A stretch of 64,000 bases of DNA from Rhodanobacteraceae bacterium. Lineage in GTDB: Bacteria; Pseudomonadota; Gammaproteobacteria; Xanthomonadales; SZUA-5. The translations under genes and the position numbers were made by a program. The stretch is from assembly GCA_031425695.1 (NCBI GenBank), contig JANPJV010000314.1:2293-66292 (forward strand), given 5' to 3'. The notes beneath the pieces were generated by a model that was given only the letters and a program-made list of their open reading frames with translations, was not told the DNA's origin and did not search any database. Below are positions 12,700 to 27,063 of this stretch, one piece after another. The stretch's first letter is position 1, and the number at the start of each line of letters is the position of its first letter.

Positions 12700-13926
12700 T
12701 CAGACCTCCCGCACCAGCTGCGCGCTGATCTTGTCGAAACCAAGCTCGACGGCCTGGTTCAATGCCCGCACGAGCGCGTTGTTGACGTTCAGCGGGTAGC
12801 TGTGGTCCTCCGGGATGTTGCTGCCCTGCCGCGACAACAACAGGCGCTGCCGAAGGGCCTGCAGTGCATCCTTCTCGAAAAGCTTCTCGATGGCGTCTTT
12901 CCCGAGCACGCGAACGAGCTTGTGCTCGACGTAGCCGGCCAGGTCATCACCGAGTGGTCGAAGCGTCGCCACTTCGCAGCGCCGGATGAACTCGCGGATC
13001 TTCGAGTTCTTGCGCTCGTCCAGGATCAACTTCAGCTCGGGCTGGCCGATCAGGATGATGCCGAGCAGCTTGCGGAAGCCGTCCTCCAGCTCCCAGAAGC
13101 GCTTGAGGTAGCGGAGCATGTCCATCGACAGGTCGTGCGCTTCTTCGATCAGCAGCACGTGCGTATTGCCTGCGGCTGCGCTCTCCGCCAGCACACGCTC
13201 GACCTGCCGTGCCAAGCCCTCAAGATCAGATTTCGGGGTTTCCGAGCTGACGTCTGCGAGGACCGCCTGGCAGACGTGATTGGCGGTCAGCTTCCGCTTG
13301 TCCGTGCACTTCACCTTGATGACGGTGATTCGCTCTTCGCTGCGCGCCAGGCGCTCGATCAGGTTGCGTTTCAGTGTCGACTTTCCGGCGCCGCTCTCGC
13401 CGATCACCGCGAGCAGCCCGTTGTGTTTGGCCGCGTAGTACATCGCCTCGCCCACGAAGCGCATGTCGCGGCTGATGAAGACGTCCCGGCCGCAGGTGAT
13501 GTCGTTGTTGCCGAACGGGTTCTGGTGCAGGTTGAAATGACGGCGAGCGGCCTCTGAAAGCATTTCGGACTCCGGGACGGTTTGGCTGAAGGTTGGTGCA
13601 GCTTTCTCGCGGCTCGCCGGCCGGCTTTCTTCCGGGGGACGGGAGTCCGAGGTGGCGACCTCGGGCTCCCAGAGTCCATCGACGCTCTGCCCGGTTGCGG
13701 CGACGGCACGCTCGATTCTTTTTCTGATCTCCTCCGTGTCGTAGCCGACTGGCCAGATGCCGTGGTTGCACAGGTAGTGCAGCGTGGTGCGGCTGATCCG
13801 ATTGCCGAGCCGGCCGTGTTTGATATCGGCCAGCTCGGCCGCGAGATGGGCTGTCGAGATCCGGCCGCGCCGCATGGCGCTCTTGAGCCCGATGGCCGGG
13901 TTCATGGCGTGGTCGGGGTTTCTCAT
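12700..13926 (-). CDS. transposition ATPase B (MuB-like, ExeA-type AAA+)
   Basis: 408 aa: N-terminal HTH-like region, Walker A GESGAGKST and Walker B HVLLIEEAH. Lies downstream of transposase A. Confidence 0.85.
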   Translation of the reverse strand: MRNPDHAMNPAIGLKSAMRRGRISTAHLAAELADIKHGRLGNRISRTTLHYLCNHGIWPVGYDTEEIRKRIERAVAATGQSVDGLWEPEVATSDSRPPEESRPASREKAAPTFSQTVPESEMLSEAARRHFNLHQNPFGNNDITCGRDVFISRDMRFVGEAMYYAAKHNGLLAVIGESGAGKSTLKRNLIERLARSEERITVIKVKCTDKRKLTANHVCQAVLADVSSETPKSDLEGLARQVERVLAESAAAGNTHVLLIEEAHDLSMDMLRYLKRFWELEDGFRKLLGIILIGQPELKLILDERKNSKIREFIRRCEVATLRPLGDDLAGYVEHKLVRVLGKDAIEKLFEKDALQALRQRLLLSRQGSNIPEDHSYPLNVNNALVRALNQAVELGFDKISAQLVREV

Positions 13927-19270: not shown

Positions 19271-19564
19271 TCAGGCGGCTTTCGCCGCAAGGCGGGCTTC
19301 GAGGGCTTTCACGCGAGCGGAAAGCTCTGCAACGTTCAGTGGGCGCTTGCGGCGCCGGGCTTCTGGGCCGTGCCAATGCGGCCAGATTTCAGCCAGGCTG
19401 AGCCCGAGGAGAGTGGCGATCTTTTCCTCGATCTGACGGCTCCGACCCACGCTATGGATGACCGCACTCACCGTCTGGCGGTGTGCGACTTGGCACATTC
19501 GTGCGACATCGGCCTGGGTCAGACCGGCGCGTTCCAGCGCGTACTTAATGTCTATCGGGCTCAT
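19271..19564 (-). CDS. ner: Ner-family DNA-binding protein (first gene of the leftward early operon)
   Basis: 97 aa. DIKYALERAGLTQADVARMCQVAHRQTVSAVIHSVGRSRQIEEKIATLLGLSLAEIWPHWH matches the Mu Ner pattern (the ..IWPSRY-type ending). Confidence 0.75.
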   Translation of the reverse strand: MSPIDIKYALERAGLTQADVARMCQVAHRQTVSAVIHSVGRSRQIEEKIATLLGLSLAEIWPHWHGPEARRRKRPLNVAELSARVKALEARLAAKAA

Positions 19565-19655: not shown

Positions 19656-20078
19656 ATGCACCCCGCTGACATTGCGGCCGCGCTAAAGAGGAAGAAGGTC
19701 ACTCAGGCCGAGGTTGCGGCGGCCTGCGGGGTGGTTCGCGGCGTCGCCAACGCAGTGGTACGGGGCGTTGGGCGGTCGAAGAAAGTCGAGGCCGAAATCT
19801 CGAACGTGACCGGCATACCACTCGAAGAGCTATGGCCGCAGTGGTATCCACCCGCCTCGGCCAAGGGCAATACCGTGTCTGTGCGAGGGGATCGCAACGT
19901 TACTGCTGGAGGCAAAATCGGCCATGTGGTTGATCCACAAACCAGAGACGCGTTCGCGCTATTCGTTTCGGGGCTAACACCCACCGAAGAGCGCTTGATC
20001 AGGCTCTATCGGGCGCTTGAGCCTGGGCAGCAAGAAGAAGTTGAACAGTTCATGCGGAAGAAACTCGCAGGCAACTAA
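19656..20078 (+). CDS. Ner-family HTH protein with C-terminal extension (candidate lysogeny repressor)
   Basis: 140 aa. The N-terminus HPADIAAALKRKKVTQAEVAAACGVVRGVANAVVRGVGRSKKVEAEISNVTGIPLEELWPQWY is paralogous to the ner-like gene on the opposite strand. An extra ~75-aa C-terminal domain follows. Confidence 0.7.
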   Translation: MHPADIAAALKRKKVTQAEVAAACGVVRGVANAVVRGVGRSKKVEAEISNVTGIPLEELWPQWYPPASAKGNTVSVRGDRNVTAGGKIGHVVDPQTRDAFALFVSGLTPTEERLIRLYRALEPGQQEEVEQFMRKKLAGN

Positions 20079-20095
20079 CCAACCTTGGAGTCGTT

Positions 20096-20485
20096 ATGTC
20101 AGCCAAGTACAAGCCGTTTGACCACATCGTTCATCCGCAATTTGTGCCTGGCTGGGTCGGCATGGCTGGATTCGTAAGCGGCATCCTCGCCTTGATTGGT
20201 GCCCTCGGCGTGGTCGCTGGTGGCATCCTGATGCTGGTCGCCTTTTCTACCGATCCGGGCACGACGTTCAGCCCGAAGCCGCCACCAGTCTTGTCGGCGA
20301 TGGGCGCCACCTATCTCATCGGCATGTCGCTTTCGATCTTCGCGCTGGCGTCGATCGTTGACAACCTCGCCGCATGCCGACTGCACCTGCTGGAGCTGGT
20401 CACATTGAAGGCTGTGGAGCAGGGAGTGCCACCGAATGTCGAGCCCGATGTGCAGACCTACGTGGGTCCGAGCACTGGTGCATAG
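20096..20485 (+). CDS. membrane protein (2 TM), accessory operon gene 1
   Basis: 129 aa with GGAG 8 nt upstream, starting 18 nt after the repressor-like gene. TM helices GMAGFVSGILALIGALGVVAGGILMLVAF and ATYLIGMSLSIFALASIV. Confidence 0.65.
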   Translation: MSAKYKPFDHIVHPQFVPGWVGMAGFVSGILALIGALGVVAGGILMLVAFSTDPGTTFSPKPPPVLSAMGATYLIGMSLSIFALASIVDNLAACRLHLLELVTLKAVEQGVPPNVEPDVQTYVGPSTGA

Positions 20486-20663
20486 AGGGGTGCGCCGCCC
20501 GGCACAGCTTTGCCACATCGAAACCCCCGTGGCCGGGCCTCTTGCGAGATCGATGCTTCCGGGCGGCGCAGGGTCATTCTCAGCCCGTGAGACTGACCCT
20601 GTCTATCAGTGAACAGCGCGAGCTGGCGTAGGAAATTTCCGACAACCCAACCCGAGGAACTCC

Positions 20664-21035
20664 ATGAACATCGACGTCATTGGAAACGGCAACAACACCG
20701 CTGGACGCGACCTGACGATCGTCCACATCACCCGCGACAATCTCAAGCTCTCCTGGGAAGCCCGCGTCACCGAGCACCTGCGCCCGCTCCAAATGCCGAT
20801 GCTGCTGTCGCTCCTCGGCCTTGTGTCCTGGGGCGCGGCCATGATGGGCGCGAACTACCTTGCAACCTACTACCGGGTGATGCCGCTTTTCGAGGATGCC
20901 GCTGTCGCCATCTATGGCATTGCCGGGTTCGGCTTTACCGCGTTTGCGATGTACACGCGGCGCAGGGCGGAGAAGGCATGCAGTGATGCGGGCGGCATCG
21001 CGCCAGGTGGGACATTTGGCGCCTCGGCGACATAA
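20664..21035 (+). CDS. membrane protein (2 TM) with N-terminal IDVIGNGNNTAGRDL motif, accessory gene 2
   Basis: 123 aa with a GAGGAA Shine-Dalgarno. The N-terminal motif is shared with ORF 22677 and with the repressor C-terminal domain. Confidence 0.65.
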   Translation: MNIDVIGNGNNTAGRDLTIVHITRDNLKLSWEARVTEHLRPLQMPMLLSLLGLVSWGAAMMGANYLATYYRVMPLFEDAAVAIYGIAGFGFTAFAMYTRRRAEKACSDAGGIAPGGTFGASAT

Positions 21036-21068
21036 CGTCAGGTTCAACCAACACCTACAGGGGGTGTC

Positions 21069-21953
21069 ATGCGACAGATCACAGCTAGCGTAGTGAACAT
21101 CGATGCCCATCCGCACGAGCCAGGCACCTATGGGTCCCTGATGAAGCAGCTCGTTGGCAGGAAGGTAGCTTATCGCGCGGAACGCTCGATGGTCGTGCGA
21201 GGCTTCGATGGCGATGGTCAGATACGCGGCGGAACTATTGTCACGTTCACCGACTTCGACCCAGACGCGCCCTGGTTCGACCCTGAGCTGCTAGACACTG
21301 CGGACGTCCGCGCGACCGAGGCCGCAAGAGCGGCGGTTCAGAAGATCAAGCCTTCCATGCAGGTTTTTCGCGCTGCGCTTGCCGAGATGAACGGCAGCAT
21401 TCACTGCCTCGTAGTCGAGACCAAGAATGAAGAGGGTGAATCGCTTTCGATCTCGCTCGTAGCTGAAGCGCTACGAAAGCTTGCCCTTGGCGTTTTGGGA
21501 GATGCCCCCAAAATGACCGTGAGCTTTTCTGTCCTGTCCAGCAACGACGAGGTGGAAAGACTGCTTTCAAAGCCGAACATTCAGCGCCTGCACGTCATTG
21601 TCTCGATGCCGAACATCGATGATGGGGAGGCCGAGGACAATGCTGTTCAGGAGGAATTGGAAAGGCTTGGCGCGACAAAAGAGGAACGAATCTTGACCGC
21701 CCCCGTCGCAAAGACCGGCGGCATCAAACCAGACGAAGAGTTGAAGAGGCTCGCGCGAGTTGCTTCGCGGCATGGCCGAGTAGAGGTCACCCACGGTTCA
21801 CGCGGCAAGACGAGAATTGAATCGACGTCCGACAAGCCTATTGTCGAGACGGCCAAGCCACATGATAAGGAGCCCTACTCCAGCGCCTTTAAGGGCTTGA
21901 TCAAGCAGTTCATCACTAGGCTCGCGATAGGAAAGAAGTTGGATAGCCAATGA
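21069..21953 (+). CDS. soluble 294-aa protein of unknown function, accessory gene 3
   Basis: AGGGGG Shine-Dalgarno and no TM segments. ATGA overlap with the following membrane protein. GC is visibly lower than in the phage core genes. Confidence 0.7.
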   Translation: MRQITASVVNIDAHPHEPGTYGSLMKQLVGRKVAYRAERSMVVRGFDGDGQIRGGTIVTFTDFDPDAPWFDPELLDTADVRATEAARAAVQKIKPSMQVFRAALAEMNGSIHCLVVETKNEEGESLSISLVAEALRKLALGVLGDAPKMTVSFSVLSSNDEVERLLSKPNIQRLHVIVSMPNIDDGEAEDNAVQEELERLGATKEERILTAPVAKTGGIKPDEELKRLARVASRHGRVEVTHGSRGKTRIESTSDKPIVETAKPHDKEPYSSAFKGLIKQFITRLAIGKKLDSQ

Positions 21954-22606
21954 GCGACAACGGCACCATTGACGTACTCAAGGTTGTTTGGGATATCTCT
22001 GGCGGGTGGCGGCGTATCTCACGCGCTTGGTACACCTGGGCGGCCCTGCTGATCAGCGTTCTCTGTTGGTCTCTCTGGTGGGACGCTGCCTGGTGGGATC
22101 TGTCGCTAGAGATCATCCCTGGAATGCTCGGTTTTTCGCTTGCCGGGTTTGCAATGATGTTGGCGTTTGGAGACGACCGATTCCGTGCCGTCCTTTCAAG
22201 GGCAATGGTGGTGACAGGCGGGGAAGGTACGTCCAAACATTCGGCCTTCATGGGATACGCAAGCATCTTTGTGCACTACTTGGTGGCACAGGTCCTCGGT
22301 CTCTTGCTTGCGATAATCGCCAAGGCCGAGCTGGGAATTCTCCCGCTCGTTGGTGGTACCGGGATATTTCGTTTCGCCATCGGCATTTGTCACTTCGTCG
22401 GTTTCTTCTTCGTCGTGTATTCGATTCTCATGGCCCTCGCAGCAACCCTCGCGGTTTTTCGCATGGCGCGAACCGCCGACAAAATCCAGCGGCTCCCGCC
22501 GCCCAAGCCTGATGCTGTGTCGCCAGAGGGCGAAATGTCCCATCCCGCTTCAGGACCTGTTGTCCCCGCGTCAGCTGCATTAACCCCGCCTGTCACCCGC
22601 GCATAG
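21950..22606 (+). CDS. polytopic membrane protein (about 5 TM), accessory gene 4
   Basis: 218 aa. TM helices include WAALLISVLCWSLWW, IIPGMLGFSLAGFAMMLAF, IFVHYLVAQVLGLLLAIIA and FAIGICHFVGFFFVVYSILMALAATLAVF. Pro-rich C-terminal tail. Confidence 0.7.
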   Translation: MSDNGTIDVLKVVWDISGGWRRISRAWYTWAALLISVLCWSLWWDAAWWDLSLEIIPGMLGFSLAGFAMMLAFGDDRFRAVLSRAMVVTGGEGTSKHSAFMGYASIFVHYLVAQVLGLLLAIIAKAELGILPLVGGTGIFRFAIGICHFVGFFFVVYSILMALAATLAVFRMARTADKIQRLPPPKPDAVSPEGEMSHPASGPVVPASAALTPPVTRA

Positions 22607-22676: not shown

Positions 22677-22835
22677 ATGAGCGACATTGATATCGAGGGC
22701 AGCAGTAACGCAACTTCTGGGCGCGACCTGGTCGTGGTGGTGATCCATCTGCACTTGAACATCGGCAGCGTCCAGCAGCTGGTGATGACGAATGCTCCGG
22801 CGCCGGAGCCCAAGAAAGCCGAGCCCCCGAAATAG
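22677..22835 (+). CDS. 52-aa protein with IDIEGSSNATSGRDL motif, accessory gene 5
   Basis: ATG 22677 inside track ORF 22626..22835. Sequence: MSDIDIEGSSNATSGRDLVVVVIHLHLNIGSVQQLVMTNAPAPEPKKAEPPK. Confidence 0.45.
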   Translation: MSDIDIEGSSNATSGRDLVVVVIHLHLNIGSVQQLVMTNAPAPEPKKAEPPK

Positions 22836-25202: not shown

Positions 25203-25594
25203 GCCAGCTCACCCAGTCCGCCCGCCTCGACCGCGGCCTCTACCAAGGTGCGAGTTGGGATCTTTGCCTGCGCGTGTACAACGCCGCGGCGCCGTTGGGC
25301 GACGGCTTGCCGCGCAGTGCGGTCGGCCTGGTCGTCAAGTGCCAGATCCGCGCGGAAGAACGCGAAGACGCGACGCTGCTCGCGAGCATGAGCACCAGCG
25401 ACGGCCGAATAACGACTGACGCCGACGGCTACGTTCGCATCCGACTGCCGGCAAGCGTTACCGCGACCATGCCGTTCTTGGGTCGGCCTCGGACCTGGTT
25501 CTACGACGTGCGCATTGCCGAGGCAGGCGACACTGAGCCCGTTCGCTATTGGCTCCACGGCGCGGTCAACGCGCAACCGCGGGTGACCTCATGA
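25199..25594 (+). CDS. hypothetical structural protein preceding the tail fibre
   Basis: 131 aa from GTG 25199 (GTGA overlap) and an ATGA overlap with the tail-fibre gene. Confidence 0.55.
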   Translation: MSQLTQSARLDRGLYQGASWDLCLRVYNAAAPLGDGLPRSAVGLVVKCQIRAEEREDATLLASMSTSDGRITTDADGYVRIRLPASVTATMPFLGRPRTWFYDVRIAEAGDTEPVRYWLHGAVNAQPRVTS

Positions 25595-27063
25595 GCGGAA
25601 TTGAAGTCCAGGTCGTTGACCAGGTGGTTCAGGTCTACGAGGGCATGGGTCCCGACGGTCCGCCAGGCCAGGGGTTGCCATCGGGCGGCACAACCGGGCA
25701 GCAGCCGCGCAAGGCCTCGAACATGGACTACGACGTCGAGTGGGTTGATCCGCCTGCCGGATCGGGCGACGTGGTGGGGCCAGCAGTCTCGGTCGATGAC
25801 CGTCTCGCAGGCTTCAACGGCACGACTGGGAAGCTGCTCCGGCAAGGCACGAAAACGCTTGCCCAGGTGGCCACCCATCTGGACAGCACGGCGAATCCGC
25901 ACGGAACCACGGCGGTACAGGTCGGGGCGGATCCAACGGGTACCGCGGCGGCGGCGGTAGCTGCACATGCTGGCGCGGCCGATCCACATGCTGACCGCGC
26001 GTTTGCCACCGCTGCGGTTGCGGCGCATGCGGGCGCAGTGGATCCACACGCCGACCGTGCTTTTGCCACAGCTGCCGTTGCCGCACATGCGGCAGCAGCT
26101 GGTGCGCATGAGATGGCGGGCGTAAACGGTTTGGCCGCGGCGCTCGCGCTACTGGCGCCGCTGCTTTCTCCAGCGTTGACGGGCAATCCGACGGCGCCAA
26201 CGCAGTCGGCCGGCAACTCCAGTACGCGGCTCGCAACGACGGCTTTTGTGGCGCAGGCGCTTGCAGACTTGATCGGCAGCGTGCCTGGCACGCTGGACAC
26301 GTTGGACGAGCTCGCCGCGGCGCTCGGTGATGACCCGAACTTTGCAGCAACGATTGCGGCGTCTATCGCGACCAAGCTGGCCAAAGCATCCAATCTCAGC
26401 GATCTGACTGACGCCGCGGCGGCGCTCACCAACCTCGGGGGCAGCACGCTCGGGAAAGCCATTTTCGCGGTTGCCAGCGCAGCCGCAGCTCGCACGCTCC
26501 TGCAGCTTGGTGGAGCTGCGCTGCTTGCGGTTGGCACCACAGCCGGGACTGTCGCGGCGGGCGACGATGCGCGCATCACAGGCGCGGTGCCGAGCACGCG
26601 CACGGTTGCAGGCGCAGGCCTGGTAACTGGGGGCGGCGACCTCTCGGCCAATCGCACCCTCACGGTTGGAGCCGCGTCGGCCGCAGATGTCAACACCGGC
26701 ACGAGTGCTGCGGTGGCAATGACTCCGGCGAGCTACAAGGATTCCACTCCGTTCTACGTCGATGTCGCGGCCGACAAGACCCTCCAAATCGCGGATGCGA
26801 ACGTCAACCAGCGCGTGAACAGCGCGAGCGCCATCGTGCTGACTCTGGCGCTGAACGCGACCGTCGCTTACCCGGCGCGATGCGTTTTCCCCGGGAAACG
26901 ATCGGGCGCGGGCACTGTGACCATCGACGCCGTCGCGGGGGTCACGCTCAACGGTGTGAACGGCGGAAGCTGCACCGTCAACACGCGCTATCAGGGCTTC
27001 CTGATCGAGAACGTGGGTGTGGATGCGTTCGAGATCTCCGGCGACGTGAGTGCGGTCGCATGA
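25591..27063 (+). CDS. tail fibre protein
   Basis: 490 aa from ATG 25591. Gly/Ala/Thr-rich, with 20-aa tandem repeats AVAAHAGA(A/V)DPHADRAFATA, an NPHG/DPH motif and TRLATTAFV, all typical of phage fibres. Confidence 0.75.
   Translation: MSGIEVQVVDQVVQVYEGMGPDGPPGQGLPSGGTTGQQPRKASNMDYDVEWVDPPAGSGDVVGPAVSVDDRLAGFNGTTGKLLRQGTKTLAQVATHLDSTANPHGTTAVQVGADPTGTAAAAVAAHAGAADPHADRAFATAAVAAHAGAVDPHADRAFATAAVAAHAAAAGAHEMAGVNGLAAALALLAPLLSPALTGNPTAPTQSAGNSSTRLATTAFVAQALADLIGSVPGTLDTLDELAAALGDDPNFAATIAASIATKLAKASNLSDLTDAAAALTNLGGSTLGKAIFAVASAAAARTLLQLGGAALLAVGTTAGTVAAGDDARITGAVPSTRTVAGAGLVTGGGDLSANRTLTVGAASAADVNTGTSAAVAMTPASYKDSTPFYVDVAADKTLQIADANVNQRVNSASAIVLTLALNATVAYPARCVFPGKRSGAGTVTIDAVAGVTLNGVNGGSCTVNTRYQGFLIENVGVDAFEISGDVSAVA

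Follow-up and report, generated by a model that had tools for sequence, protein, structure and literature searches.

A DUF4747 gene and its four-transmembrane partner in a Mu-like prophage, a probable RexAB-type phage-exclusion module

Introduction

Rex was the first abortive-infection system to be described, and the question of how it senses infection has been open for 70 years. Here, we describe two overlapping open reading frames, ORF1 and ORF2, in a 64,000-nucleotide (nt) stretch of DNA from a Rhodanobacteraceae bacterium (GenBank assembly GCA_031425695.1, contig JANPJV010000314.1, positions 2,293 to 66,292 of the forward strand). This whole stretch is referred to below as the window, and all coordinates are given relative to its first nucleotide unless another contig is named. 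ORF1 encodes a soluble protein of the Pfam family DUF4747, and ORF2 encodes a membrane protein with four predicted transmembrane (TM) helices. We propose that the two genes are accessory cargo of a Mu-like prophage and probably act as a two-component module for phage exclusion (abortive infection) of the RexAB type.

The RexA protein of phage lambda has an RdgC-like two-domain fold with flexible hinge and swivel loops and undergoes a DNA-dependent conformational change (PMC11077077). Lambda RexA, Sbash gp30, CarolAnn gp44, Toast gp42, and RexApp are all homodimers with non-specific DNA binding (PMC11077077 among the sources). In the papers on Sbash, CarolAnn, and Butters, weak HHpred matches to DUF4747 were reported for the soluble defense proteins and for lambda RexA, and a Rex-like mechanism was proposed for all three systems (PMC6426596, PMC6426606, PMC7542560). 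The weakness of these matches is illustrated by Butters, for which the published HHpred probability was 69, with E=140 (PMC7542560). In Pseudomonas putida prophage P1, both genes of RexABpp (PP_5643/PP_5644) are needed for defense (Sci Rep 2026, PMC12894663). RexApp binds DNA, the four-TM protein RexBpp causes membrane damage and is where suppressor mutations map, and five characterized Rex-like systems were counted in the same paper (PMC12894663). A need for both genes in excluding superinfecting phage, with damage to or depolarization of the membrane once the system is activated, is documented in the literature for lambda, Sbash, CarolAnn, and RexABpp. A separate study found 17 'DUF4747/CarolAnn prophage system' operons under the control of the DNA-damage-responsive CapK/CapS, often beside restriction-modification systems; these are predicted immune operons, classified by annotation (EMBO J 2026, PMC13373217). 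Published work thus already places DUF4747 operons among the predicted immune operons of Rex/CarolAnn type and includes one validated Rex-fold pair from a proteobacterium.

Results

ORF1 is a DUF4747 protein with a predicted RexA-type fold

ORF1 matched Pfam DUF4747 (PF15931) with E=5.2e-28 and 98.6 bits (cut-off 27) over profile positions 1-254 of 257, and an identical database protein carries the precomputed Pfam tag PF15931. A match to phrog_10040 was also found (E=4e-25). At 294 amino acids (aa), ORF1 is within the length range typical of DUF4747 proteins (~280-300 aa), and it keeps the invariant or near-invariant residues of the family: N10, H14-P15-H16, Y21, H112, P181-N182-x-D184, and G236. 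A word-indexed protein search with ORF1 returned only ORF1 itself, and the profile returned five proteins; we therefore used an exhaustive HMMER search, which yielded 565 representative clusters (50% identity) at E<=1e-3, nearly all of ~290 aa, with only one close relative of ORF1 (56% identity). As the sole query against genome contigs, ORF1 detected no relative. The invariant residues of DUF4747 are polar and His-rich, and in ORF1 they fall at residues 10-21, 112, and 181-184 (window positions 21096-21131, 21402-21404, and 21609-21620).

A structure search had been named as a check in the initial annotation of this DNA. The AlphaFold2 model of ORF1, made from a 71-sequence alignment, had a predicted local distance difference test score (pLDDT) of 94.3 and a predicted template modeling score (pTM) of 0.91. 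When it was compared with the Protein Data Bank (PDB) using Foldseek, the first match was lambda RexA (8TWQ; E=3.2e-6, probability 1.00) and the second was RdgC (2OWL/2OWY; E=2e-5 for 2owl), with nothing else below 1e-2. Against the viral models in BFVD, the best matches were uncharacterized phage proteins of ~300 aa (template modeling score, TM-score, up to 0.63), followed by phage RdgC. Sequence searches of the PDB with phmmer and with the DUF4747 profile did not return RexA.

In the ORF1 model, a sheet and helices at the N-terminus are followed by an inserted domain of beta-alpha-beta-alpha-beta-alpha-beta topology, where the conserved PNxD loop is found (residues 181-184), and the chain closes with two strands and one long helix. 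This order appears to match the published topology of RexA, in which a globular domain is split by an inserted dimerization domain. ORF1 is hydrophilic, as originally described (maximum 19-residue Kyte-Doolittle mean of 1.41). The description of its C-terminal third as helical was correct for the long helix at the end (residues 270-293) but not for the remainder, which is alpha/beta in the model. These predictions suggest that the RexA fold is present in a bona fide member of DUF4747.

ORF2 belongs to an unannotated family of four-TM proteins

ORF2 is strongly hydrophobic and matched phrog_20580 (E=2.4e-29), while searches of Pfam, NCBIfam, and PADLOC gave no match. At least 50 database homologues were found, all annotated as 'hypothetical' and none with a Pfam domain. 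The AlphaFold2 model of ORF2 (pLDDT 83, pTM 0.76) has four long helices, and each homologue has four hydropathy peaks, as in the ORF2 model; the earlier count of about five TM helices is revised accordingly. The Pro-rich tail noted in the initial annotation is present (23% Pro, disordered) but is specific to the lineage of ORF2, being absent or unalignable in homologues. The family is marked by the motif P-x-x-L-G-F near the start of TM2, by a His in TM3 that does not vary, and by conserved Ser98 and Tyr157. Three polar helix residues, S98, H109, and Y157, are candidates for lining a channel or contacting the partner.

A Foldseek search of the viral models in BFVD with the ORF2 model returned nothing significant. 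The weak top three matches included a 172-aa protein of an uncultured siphovirus that also provided the second-best viral match of ORF1, and the third-best was a 165-aa Sbash protein, the size of gp31 (E=0.36). These weak matches should be taken as a hint rather than as evidence.

The DUF4747 and ORF2 families are almost obligately adjacent

Both genes were present in 10/10 sampled contigs (designated by L numbers), comprising all eight found through DUF4747 and both found through the ORF2 family. An ORF2-family gene lay directly 3' of the DUF4747 gene in every contig with downstream DNA, with DUF4747 relatives that were 22-56% identical to ORF1. Partners on the DUF4747 side were found in L002, L003, L007, L008, L009, and L011, and as an uncalled ORF, recognized through family motifs, in L012; the six called partners matched ORF2 with phmmer E-values from 6e-62 to 1e-11. 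In both contigs with data that were derived from the ORF2 family, a DUF4747 gene was directly upstream and overlapping.

A scan of IMG/VR with the ORF2-family motif identified 56 viral contigs, one of which had no upstream DNA. Among the 55 assessable contigs, 53 had a DUF4747 gene directly upstream on the same strand. The genes overlapped in 22 of these 53 pairs (by 4 nt in eight and by 1 nt in another eight) and were separated by 0-24 nt in 30, so that the junction was between -35 and +24 nt in 52/53. The viral loci span 35-69% GC. Thus, co-occurrence of the two genes, which had also been suggested as a check on the pair, is nearly complete: the two families are almost obligately adjacent, with the soluble gene first and the membrane gene second.

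In the other two, L027 (5977-6558) and likewise L029, the ORF2-family gene was alone, and the 6 kb upstream of it contained no DUF4747 gene. The contig is lambdoid and of low GC, and the lone gene, which is flanked by NinG-like and Q-like genes and by an antirepressor-like gene, may be an orphan 'RexB-like' effector or the partner of an unrecognized sensor.

The closest relative, in L002 (56% identity for ORF1 and 60% for ORF2), occupies the equivalent slot of a Mu-like prophage, between helix-turn-helix (HTH) and holin-like/SLT genes. Other members adjoin integrases (L003, L009), an SNF2 helicase (L007), a DUF87 ATPase and a methyltransferase (L008), or IS1595 (L012), and those in L014 and L015 stand alone between housekeeping genes. 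In a Pfam census of the three nearest upstream ORFs at 44 unique viral loci (126 ORFs), the repressor-type families HTH_3/HTH_31/HTH_19 and Peptidase_S24 were the most common, followed by assorted phage functions (Ogr/Psu, Mu F/Gam/GemA, NinG, and integrase). The surroundings are therefore prophages, elements that bear an integrase, and islands in which genes for a helicase, a methylase, or an ATPase occur, and they indicate no pathway of known non-defense function. A further enterobacterial instance is probably Sal097_03127/03128 of Salmonella Welikade, two genes unique to that strain, in which a DUF4747 gene of 894 bp has a hypothetical gene of 606 bp immediately after it (PMC11181664, Table 1).

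Both reading frames at the locus, and the ATGA through which they overlap, were confirmed by the sequence. Because ORF1 has 565 related clusters, ORF2 has at least 50 homologues, and the neighboring gene is conserved, ORF1 and ORF2 are genuine genes rather than chance ORFs. No strong Shine-Dalgarno sequence could be read upstream of ORF2, which is consistent with translational coupling to ORF1. A hairpin terminator 3' of ORF2 was not significant (z=-0.23). Nowhere in the window is GC lower than around the pair (0.565-0.59 at 21-23 kb compared to ~0.65 on either side), and the pair's GC content at third codon positions is 0.65-0.67, compared to 0.81-0.82 for the endolysin and terminase genes. 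Such low values are typical of acquired cargo.

The pair shares a predicted fold and its gene architecture with lambda Rex

Lambda RexAB resembles the pair in having a soluble gene and then, adjacent to it, a four-TM gene. In lambda, a temperate phage, these genes are on the repressor side of the immunity region, and by position our pair would probably be on that side as well. RexB is shorter than ORF2 (144 aa compared to 218 aa), and rexA and rexB are 15 nt apart while ORF1 and ORF2 overlap. RexA and RexB belong to Pfam families of their own (PF15969 and PF15968), and neither protein matches DUF4747. RexAB of the lambda type is uncommon, occurring in 19 phage records, and is enterobacterial, in contrast to DUF4747, with 565 clusters across the GC range given above. 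Since sequence and profile similarity were not detected, the homology of ORF1 to RexA rests on the fold. A four-TM topology, as in RexB and ORF2, is a generic feature and weak evidence by itself.

The actinophage pairs Sbash gp30/gp31 and CarolAnn gp44/gp43, as well as those of Butters (gp30/gp31), Toast, and Sejanus, are also prophage-expressed soluble and four-TM proteins with overlapping gene ends. Experiments have shown that the Sbash and CarolAnn pairs protect against heterotypic phages and that the soluble protein of each dimerizes and binds DNA. The actinophage soluble proteins are ~370 aa, longer than the 294 aa of ORF1. CarolAnn gp43/gp44 (L017 11465-13088) had no Pfam match, and neither CarolAnn nor Sbash gp30/gp31 (L074 1495-3070) showed hhalign similarity to the 71-sequence DUF4747 profile. 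Searches of 50,697 phage records with the region (blastn) and with ORF1 and ORF2 (tblastn) gave no match. As judged by these sequence comparisons, the published label 'DUF4747/CarolAnn system' appears to join families without detectable sequence similarity. The pair is therefore related to lambda Rex by fold and gene architecture, and to the actinophage systems by architecture only.

RexABpp is likewise found in a proteobacterial prophage and consists of a soluble protein, with lambda RexA as its best structural match, followed by a four-TM protein. Its genes lie behind a repressor gene and two small genes, an arrangement like that of 19656-22606 in the window, with a CI-like repressor in P. 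putida. Neither RexABpp nor our pair has informative BLAST matches. Compared by published description, RexApp (~325 aa) and RexBpp (at least 181 aa) are similar in size to ORF1 (294 aa) and ORF2 (218 aa), and the host prophage P1 is cryptic and lambdoid-like, whereas ours is Mu-like and transposable. RexABpp is experimentally supported, while the ORF1/ORF2 pair is known from sequence and models. A 25-mer derived from a rexApp primer had no match in three collections, of genomes, metagenomes, and viruses, and a fuzzy search of all sequence data retrieved did not detect the terminal peptides.

With ORF1 being a true DUF4747 member, the pair falls in the 'DUF4747/CarolAnn prophage system' category, although it is behind an HTH_35 regulator in a Mu-like prophage and the published operons are controlled by capK-capS. 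Searches with PADLOC v2 and NCBIfam gave no match for the pair. The DefenseFinder models for RexAB are the Pfam models (PMC9090908), to which the pair has no match, so DefenseFinder probably misses it as well.

The pair is accessory cargo of a Mu-like prophage

The window contains a Mu-like transposable prophage in which the ORF1/ORF2 pair is accessory cargo (Table 1). On the + strand, an HTH_35 gene is followed by two small membrane-protein genes, the pair, a holin-like gene, an SLT endolysin gene, Mu Gp27, terminase, and Mu F. The gaps from the HTH gene through the small genes to ORF1 are 17, 178, and 33 nt, and each gene from HTH to the pair has its own Shine-Dalgarno sequence, ORF2 excepted. 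The operon on the - strand runs from the Ner-type gene through a transposase-sized gene of 581 aa and an AAA_22 MuB-type ATPase gene. The 581-aa gene had no Pfam match; at the equivalent position in L002 is a 590-aa gene with a weak rve match. The ATPase (12700-13926, - strand; 407 aa), 3' of the transposase in the MuB position, has sub-threshold matches to nSTAND1/3/6 (STAND nucleoside triphosphatases), and a similar protein is encoded at the equivalent place in L002.

The Ner-type and + strand HTH_35 genes are divergent, with 91 nt between them, and form a probable genetic switch of the prophage. Because it diverges from the Ner-type gene of the transposase operon, the + strand gene is probably the repressor-side gene, as judged from position only. 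The pair sits on the strand headed by this gene; its identity as the repressor and transcription of the pair in the lysogen are what we infer. The closest sequenced phages are Mu-like siphoviruses, with terminase identity of just 52-58%. Among these, Rhodovulum phage P1 keeps the gene order of classical Mu but lacks the pair, which indicates that the pair is dispensable cargo. The early transposase arm in the window is directed away from the lysis and structural genes, unlike in the order of Rhodovulum phage P1.

Small ORFs on either side of the pair (20664-21035 and 22677-22835, both + strand) have a common N-terminal motif, MNIDVIGNGNNTAGRDL... and MSDIDIEGSSNATSGRDL..., respectively. The upstream one encodes a 123-aa protein with two TM segments, and the downstream one is a 52-aa stub. 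Their DNA similarity is confined to a short conserved patch, which points to an old duplication, and the idea that the duplicated ORF is the scar of a recent insertion was rejected for this reason. Among 69 loci searched, a homologue of the 123-aa gene was found solely in L002 (7651-8004; 117 aa), where it overlaps the DUF4747 start by 4 nt, and none was found in the 67 other loci. We therefore rejected a three-gene module composed of this small 'GRDL-motif' membrane gene and the pair, and the core is the two-gene pair.

Between the lysis genes and the terminase region, a 504-aa Ala-rich ORF (25549-27063, + strand) contains an internal direct repeat (…AVAAHAGAADPHADRAFATAAVAAHAGAVDPHADRAFATAAVAAHA…) and is overlapped on the opposite strand by an unusually long ORF. 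Its product resembles a fiber-like or repeat protein, for which this is an odd position.

Table 1. Positions in the window of the two genes, their predicted protein segments, and the genes preceding them
Feature	Position	Strand	Description or basis
Ner-type HTH_35 gene	19271-19564	-	Heads transposase operon
HTH_35 regulator gene	19656..20078	+	140 aa, heads rightward genes; Pfam HTH_35 E=6e-9; phrog_769 'transcriptional repressor'
Two small membrane-protein genes between regulator and pair	20096..21035	+	20096-20485 (129 aa) and 20664-21035 (123 aa); hydropathy
Shine-Dalgarno-like AGGGGG	21059..21064	+	4 nt 5' of ORF1 start codon; sequence read directly
ORF1	21069..21953	+	294-aa soluble DUF4747 protein, predicted RexA/RdgC-type fold; putative sensor or DNA-binding component
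ORF1 residues 1-145	21069..21503	+	Putative N-terminal part of split globular domain (six strands and helices); model compared to RexA topology
ORF1 residues 150-244	21516..21800	+	Inserted domain of beta-alpha type, with four strands and three or four helices; putative counterpart of RexA dimerization domain
ORF1 residues 247-293	21807..21947	+	Two strands and long C-terminal helix back to globular domain; analogy with RexA 248-279
ATGA overlap	21950..21953	+	ORF1 stop TGA (21951-21953), ORF2 start ATG (21950-21952)
ORF2	21950..22606	+	218-aa four-TM inner-membrane partner; putative effector, RexB analogue
ORF2 TM helix 1	22028..22081	+	Residues ~27-44, Trp-rich
ORF2 TM helix 2	22088..22168	+	Residues ~47-73, with family motif P57-x-x-L60-G61-F62
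ORF2 TM helix 3	22244..22330	+	Residues ~99-127, with invariant His109
ORF2 TM helix 4 and extension	22361..22492	+	Residues ~138-181, with conserved Tyr157
ORF2 Pro-rich disordered tail	22493..22603	+	Residues 182-218; 23% Pro, low pLDDT

Discussion

The initial annotation proposed a RexAB-like abortive-infection architecture of one soluble and one membrane protein. This proposal is strengthened by RexA being the best match of ORF1 among solved structures and by the link between DUF4747 and Rex in the literature; the function itself is one that we infer. We consider it likely that the pair is a RexAB-type phage-exclusion module. By analogy with lambda RexAB, Sbash gp30/31, CarolAnn gp44/43, and P. 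putida RexABpp, ORF1 and ORF2 would be made in the lysogen in fixed proportion through translational coupling, probably from a repressor-side promoter and along with the HTH gene and the two small upstream genes. ORF1, a probable dimer with non-specific DNA binding, would remain idle until superinfection. A phage protein, or a DNA-protein intermediate of replication or recombination, from the superinfecting phage would then act as the trigger, and activated ORF1 would engage an ORF2 oligomer such that the inner membrane is opened or damaged. The resulting drop in membrane potential and ATP would stop growth and abort the infection. We are somewhat less sure of these particular steps than of the Rex-type defense function itself.

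Several results weigh against this interpretation. Consistent with the earlier remark that no sequence similarity to Rex families was evident, ORF1 had no PF15969 (RexA) match at E<=1 and no BLASTP match to lambda RexA, and ORF2 had no PF15968 (RexB) match and was negative by BLASTP against lambda RexB. Using hhalign, the DUF4747 and ORF2 profiles aligned with a probability below 2% both to lambda RexA and RexB (as single sequences and a 4-sequence RexA alignment) and to the CarolAnn, Sbash, and Sejanus proteins (as single sequences and 3-sequence alignments), and below 1% for RexA and for both actinophage partners. The similarity between ORF2 and RexB is one of topology only. The global TM-score between the ORF1 model and 8TWQ was only 0.30, which is plausibly due to interdomain hinge motion, and RdgC, a non-defense protein, has the fold of ORF1. 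A simple scan of the + strand around the pair detected no sigma-70-like promoter and no terminator. No phenotype of the pair is known, and we found no experiment in the literature on a demonstrated Pfam DUF4747 member. Finally, the trigger and channel mechanism of lambda Rex is itself unsettled, and the protein roles are reversed in Butters (PMC12894663).

Such a reversal could in principle apply here. Butters relies mainly on its soluble protein, gp30, as the antagonist, with gp31 in a moderating role (PMC7542560; summarized in PMC12894663). By the same logic, ORF1 would be the effector, antiviral or toxic, perhaps through its binding to the DNA of the phage or to intermediates of replication, and ORF2 would only tether and silence it until infection. 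The RexA/RdgC fold is a DNA clamp, and the conserved polar, His-rich residues of DUF4747 (N10, HPH 14-16, Y21, H112, and PNxD 181-184) suggest that ORF1 has an activity of its own. However, the membrane protein is the effector in 4/5 described Rex-like systems (PMC12894663), the ORF2 family is as conserved as ORF1 and has invariant polar helix residues that fit a channel or effector better than a passive anchor, and ORF2-family orphans without DUF4747 exist (L027/L029), making this arrangement unlikely. We regard as quite unlikely a role in the prophage life cycle, in which ORF1 would tune the lysis-lysogeny switch or transposition and replication through DNA or repressor binding, and ORF2 would set lysis timing as a holin- or antiholin-like protein. 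The pair is directly upstream of a holin-like gene and an SLT endolysin gene both in the window and in L002, the Sbash pair is two genes after a holin gene, and an HTH regulator heads the strand that carries our pair. Lambda RexA affects the bistable switch independently of RexB (PMC11077077). Most family members, however, are away from lysis genes, at many prophage positions and at non-phage chromosomal sites; the classical Mu-like relative Rhodovulum P1 does entirely without the pair, and low GC marks the pair as acquired. A secondary role in the switch could exist alongside defense, as in lambda.

The fold also raises the question of whether ORF1 is an RdgC-like recombination or nucleoid-associated DNA-binding protein, next to a membrane gene with no functional meaning. 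RdgC belongs to the same fold class, is the second-best structural match after RexA, and appears as phage RdgC among the BFVD matches. In contrast to ORF1, RdgC is not known to be prophage cargo or to have a specific membrane-protein partner. ORF1 had no Pfam RdgC match and scores better against RexA, and coupled adjacency to one membrane family in 53/55 viral and 10/10 other loci is not a coincidence; this explanation is very improbable. Kiwa, which the initial annotation mentioned as a comparison, fares worse still. There, a membrane sensor (KwaA) is combined with a soluble DNA-binding effector (KwaB), and only the generic pairing of a membrane and a soluble protein speaks for it. The kwaA-kwaB gene order is opposite to the soluble-then-membrane order of our pair, PADLOC (Kiwa models included) gave no match for ORF1 or ORF2, ORF1 is a DUF4747 protein rather than DUF4868 (for which there was no match either), and the fold search gives RexA/RdgC. 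Membership in the Kiwa family was rejected on the PADLOC and Pfam results, and a Kiwa-like mode of action is scarcely credible.

For the RexAB-type reading that we favor, the result at this locus is confirmatory, and the family is of greater interest as a route into the Rex mechanism. To the known Rex/CarolAnn-like classification of DUF4747 operons, our analysis adds structural support for a RexA fold in a bona fide DUF4747 protein, and it defines an unannotated four-TM partner family with near-obligate coupling to DUF4747. It also indicates that the 'DUF4747' label of the actinophage papers is without detectable sequence membership, and that the module goes unrecognized by PADLOC v2. Prophages of many bacterial groups commonly carry the module, with the partner annotated as 'hypothetical' everywhere; defining the partners through the motif P-x-L-L-G-F and the invariant His of TM3 would let both genes be annotated, and natural variants could be used to study how a soluble sensor is coupled to a membrane effector.

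A more tentative possibility, which we hold as doubtful but worth stating, is that DUF4747 and its four-TM partner form a separate Rex-fold lineage, far more widespread than lambda RexAB and possibly different in mechanism. We know of no enzymatic activity of lambda RexA. HPH 14-16, Y21, H112, and PNxD 181-184 could belong to a site for catalysis or for ligand sensing that is absent from lambda RexA, and the polar helix residues of ORF2 could define a new membrane-effector family. If such a lineage exists, the pair would be a tractable entry to infection sensing of the Rex type.

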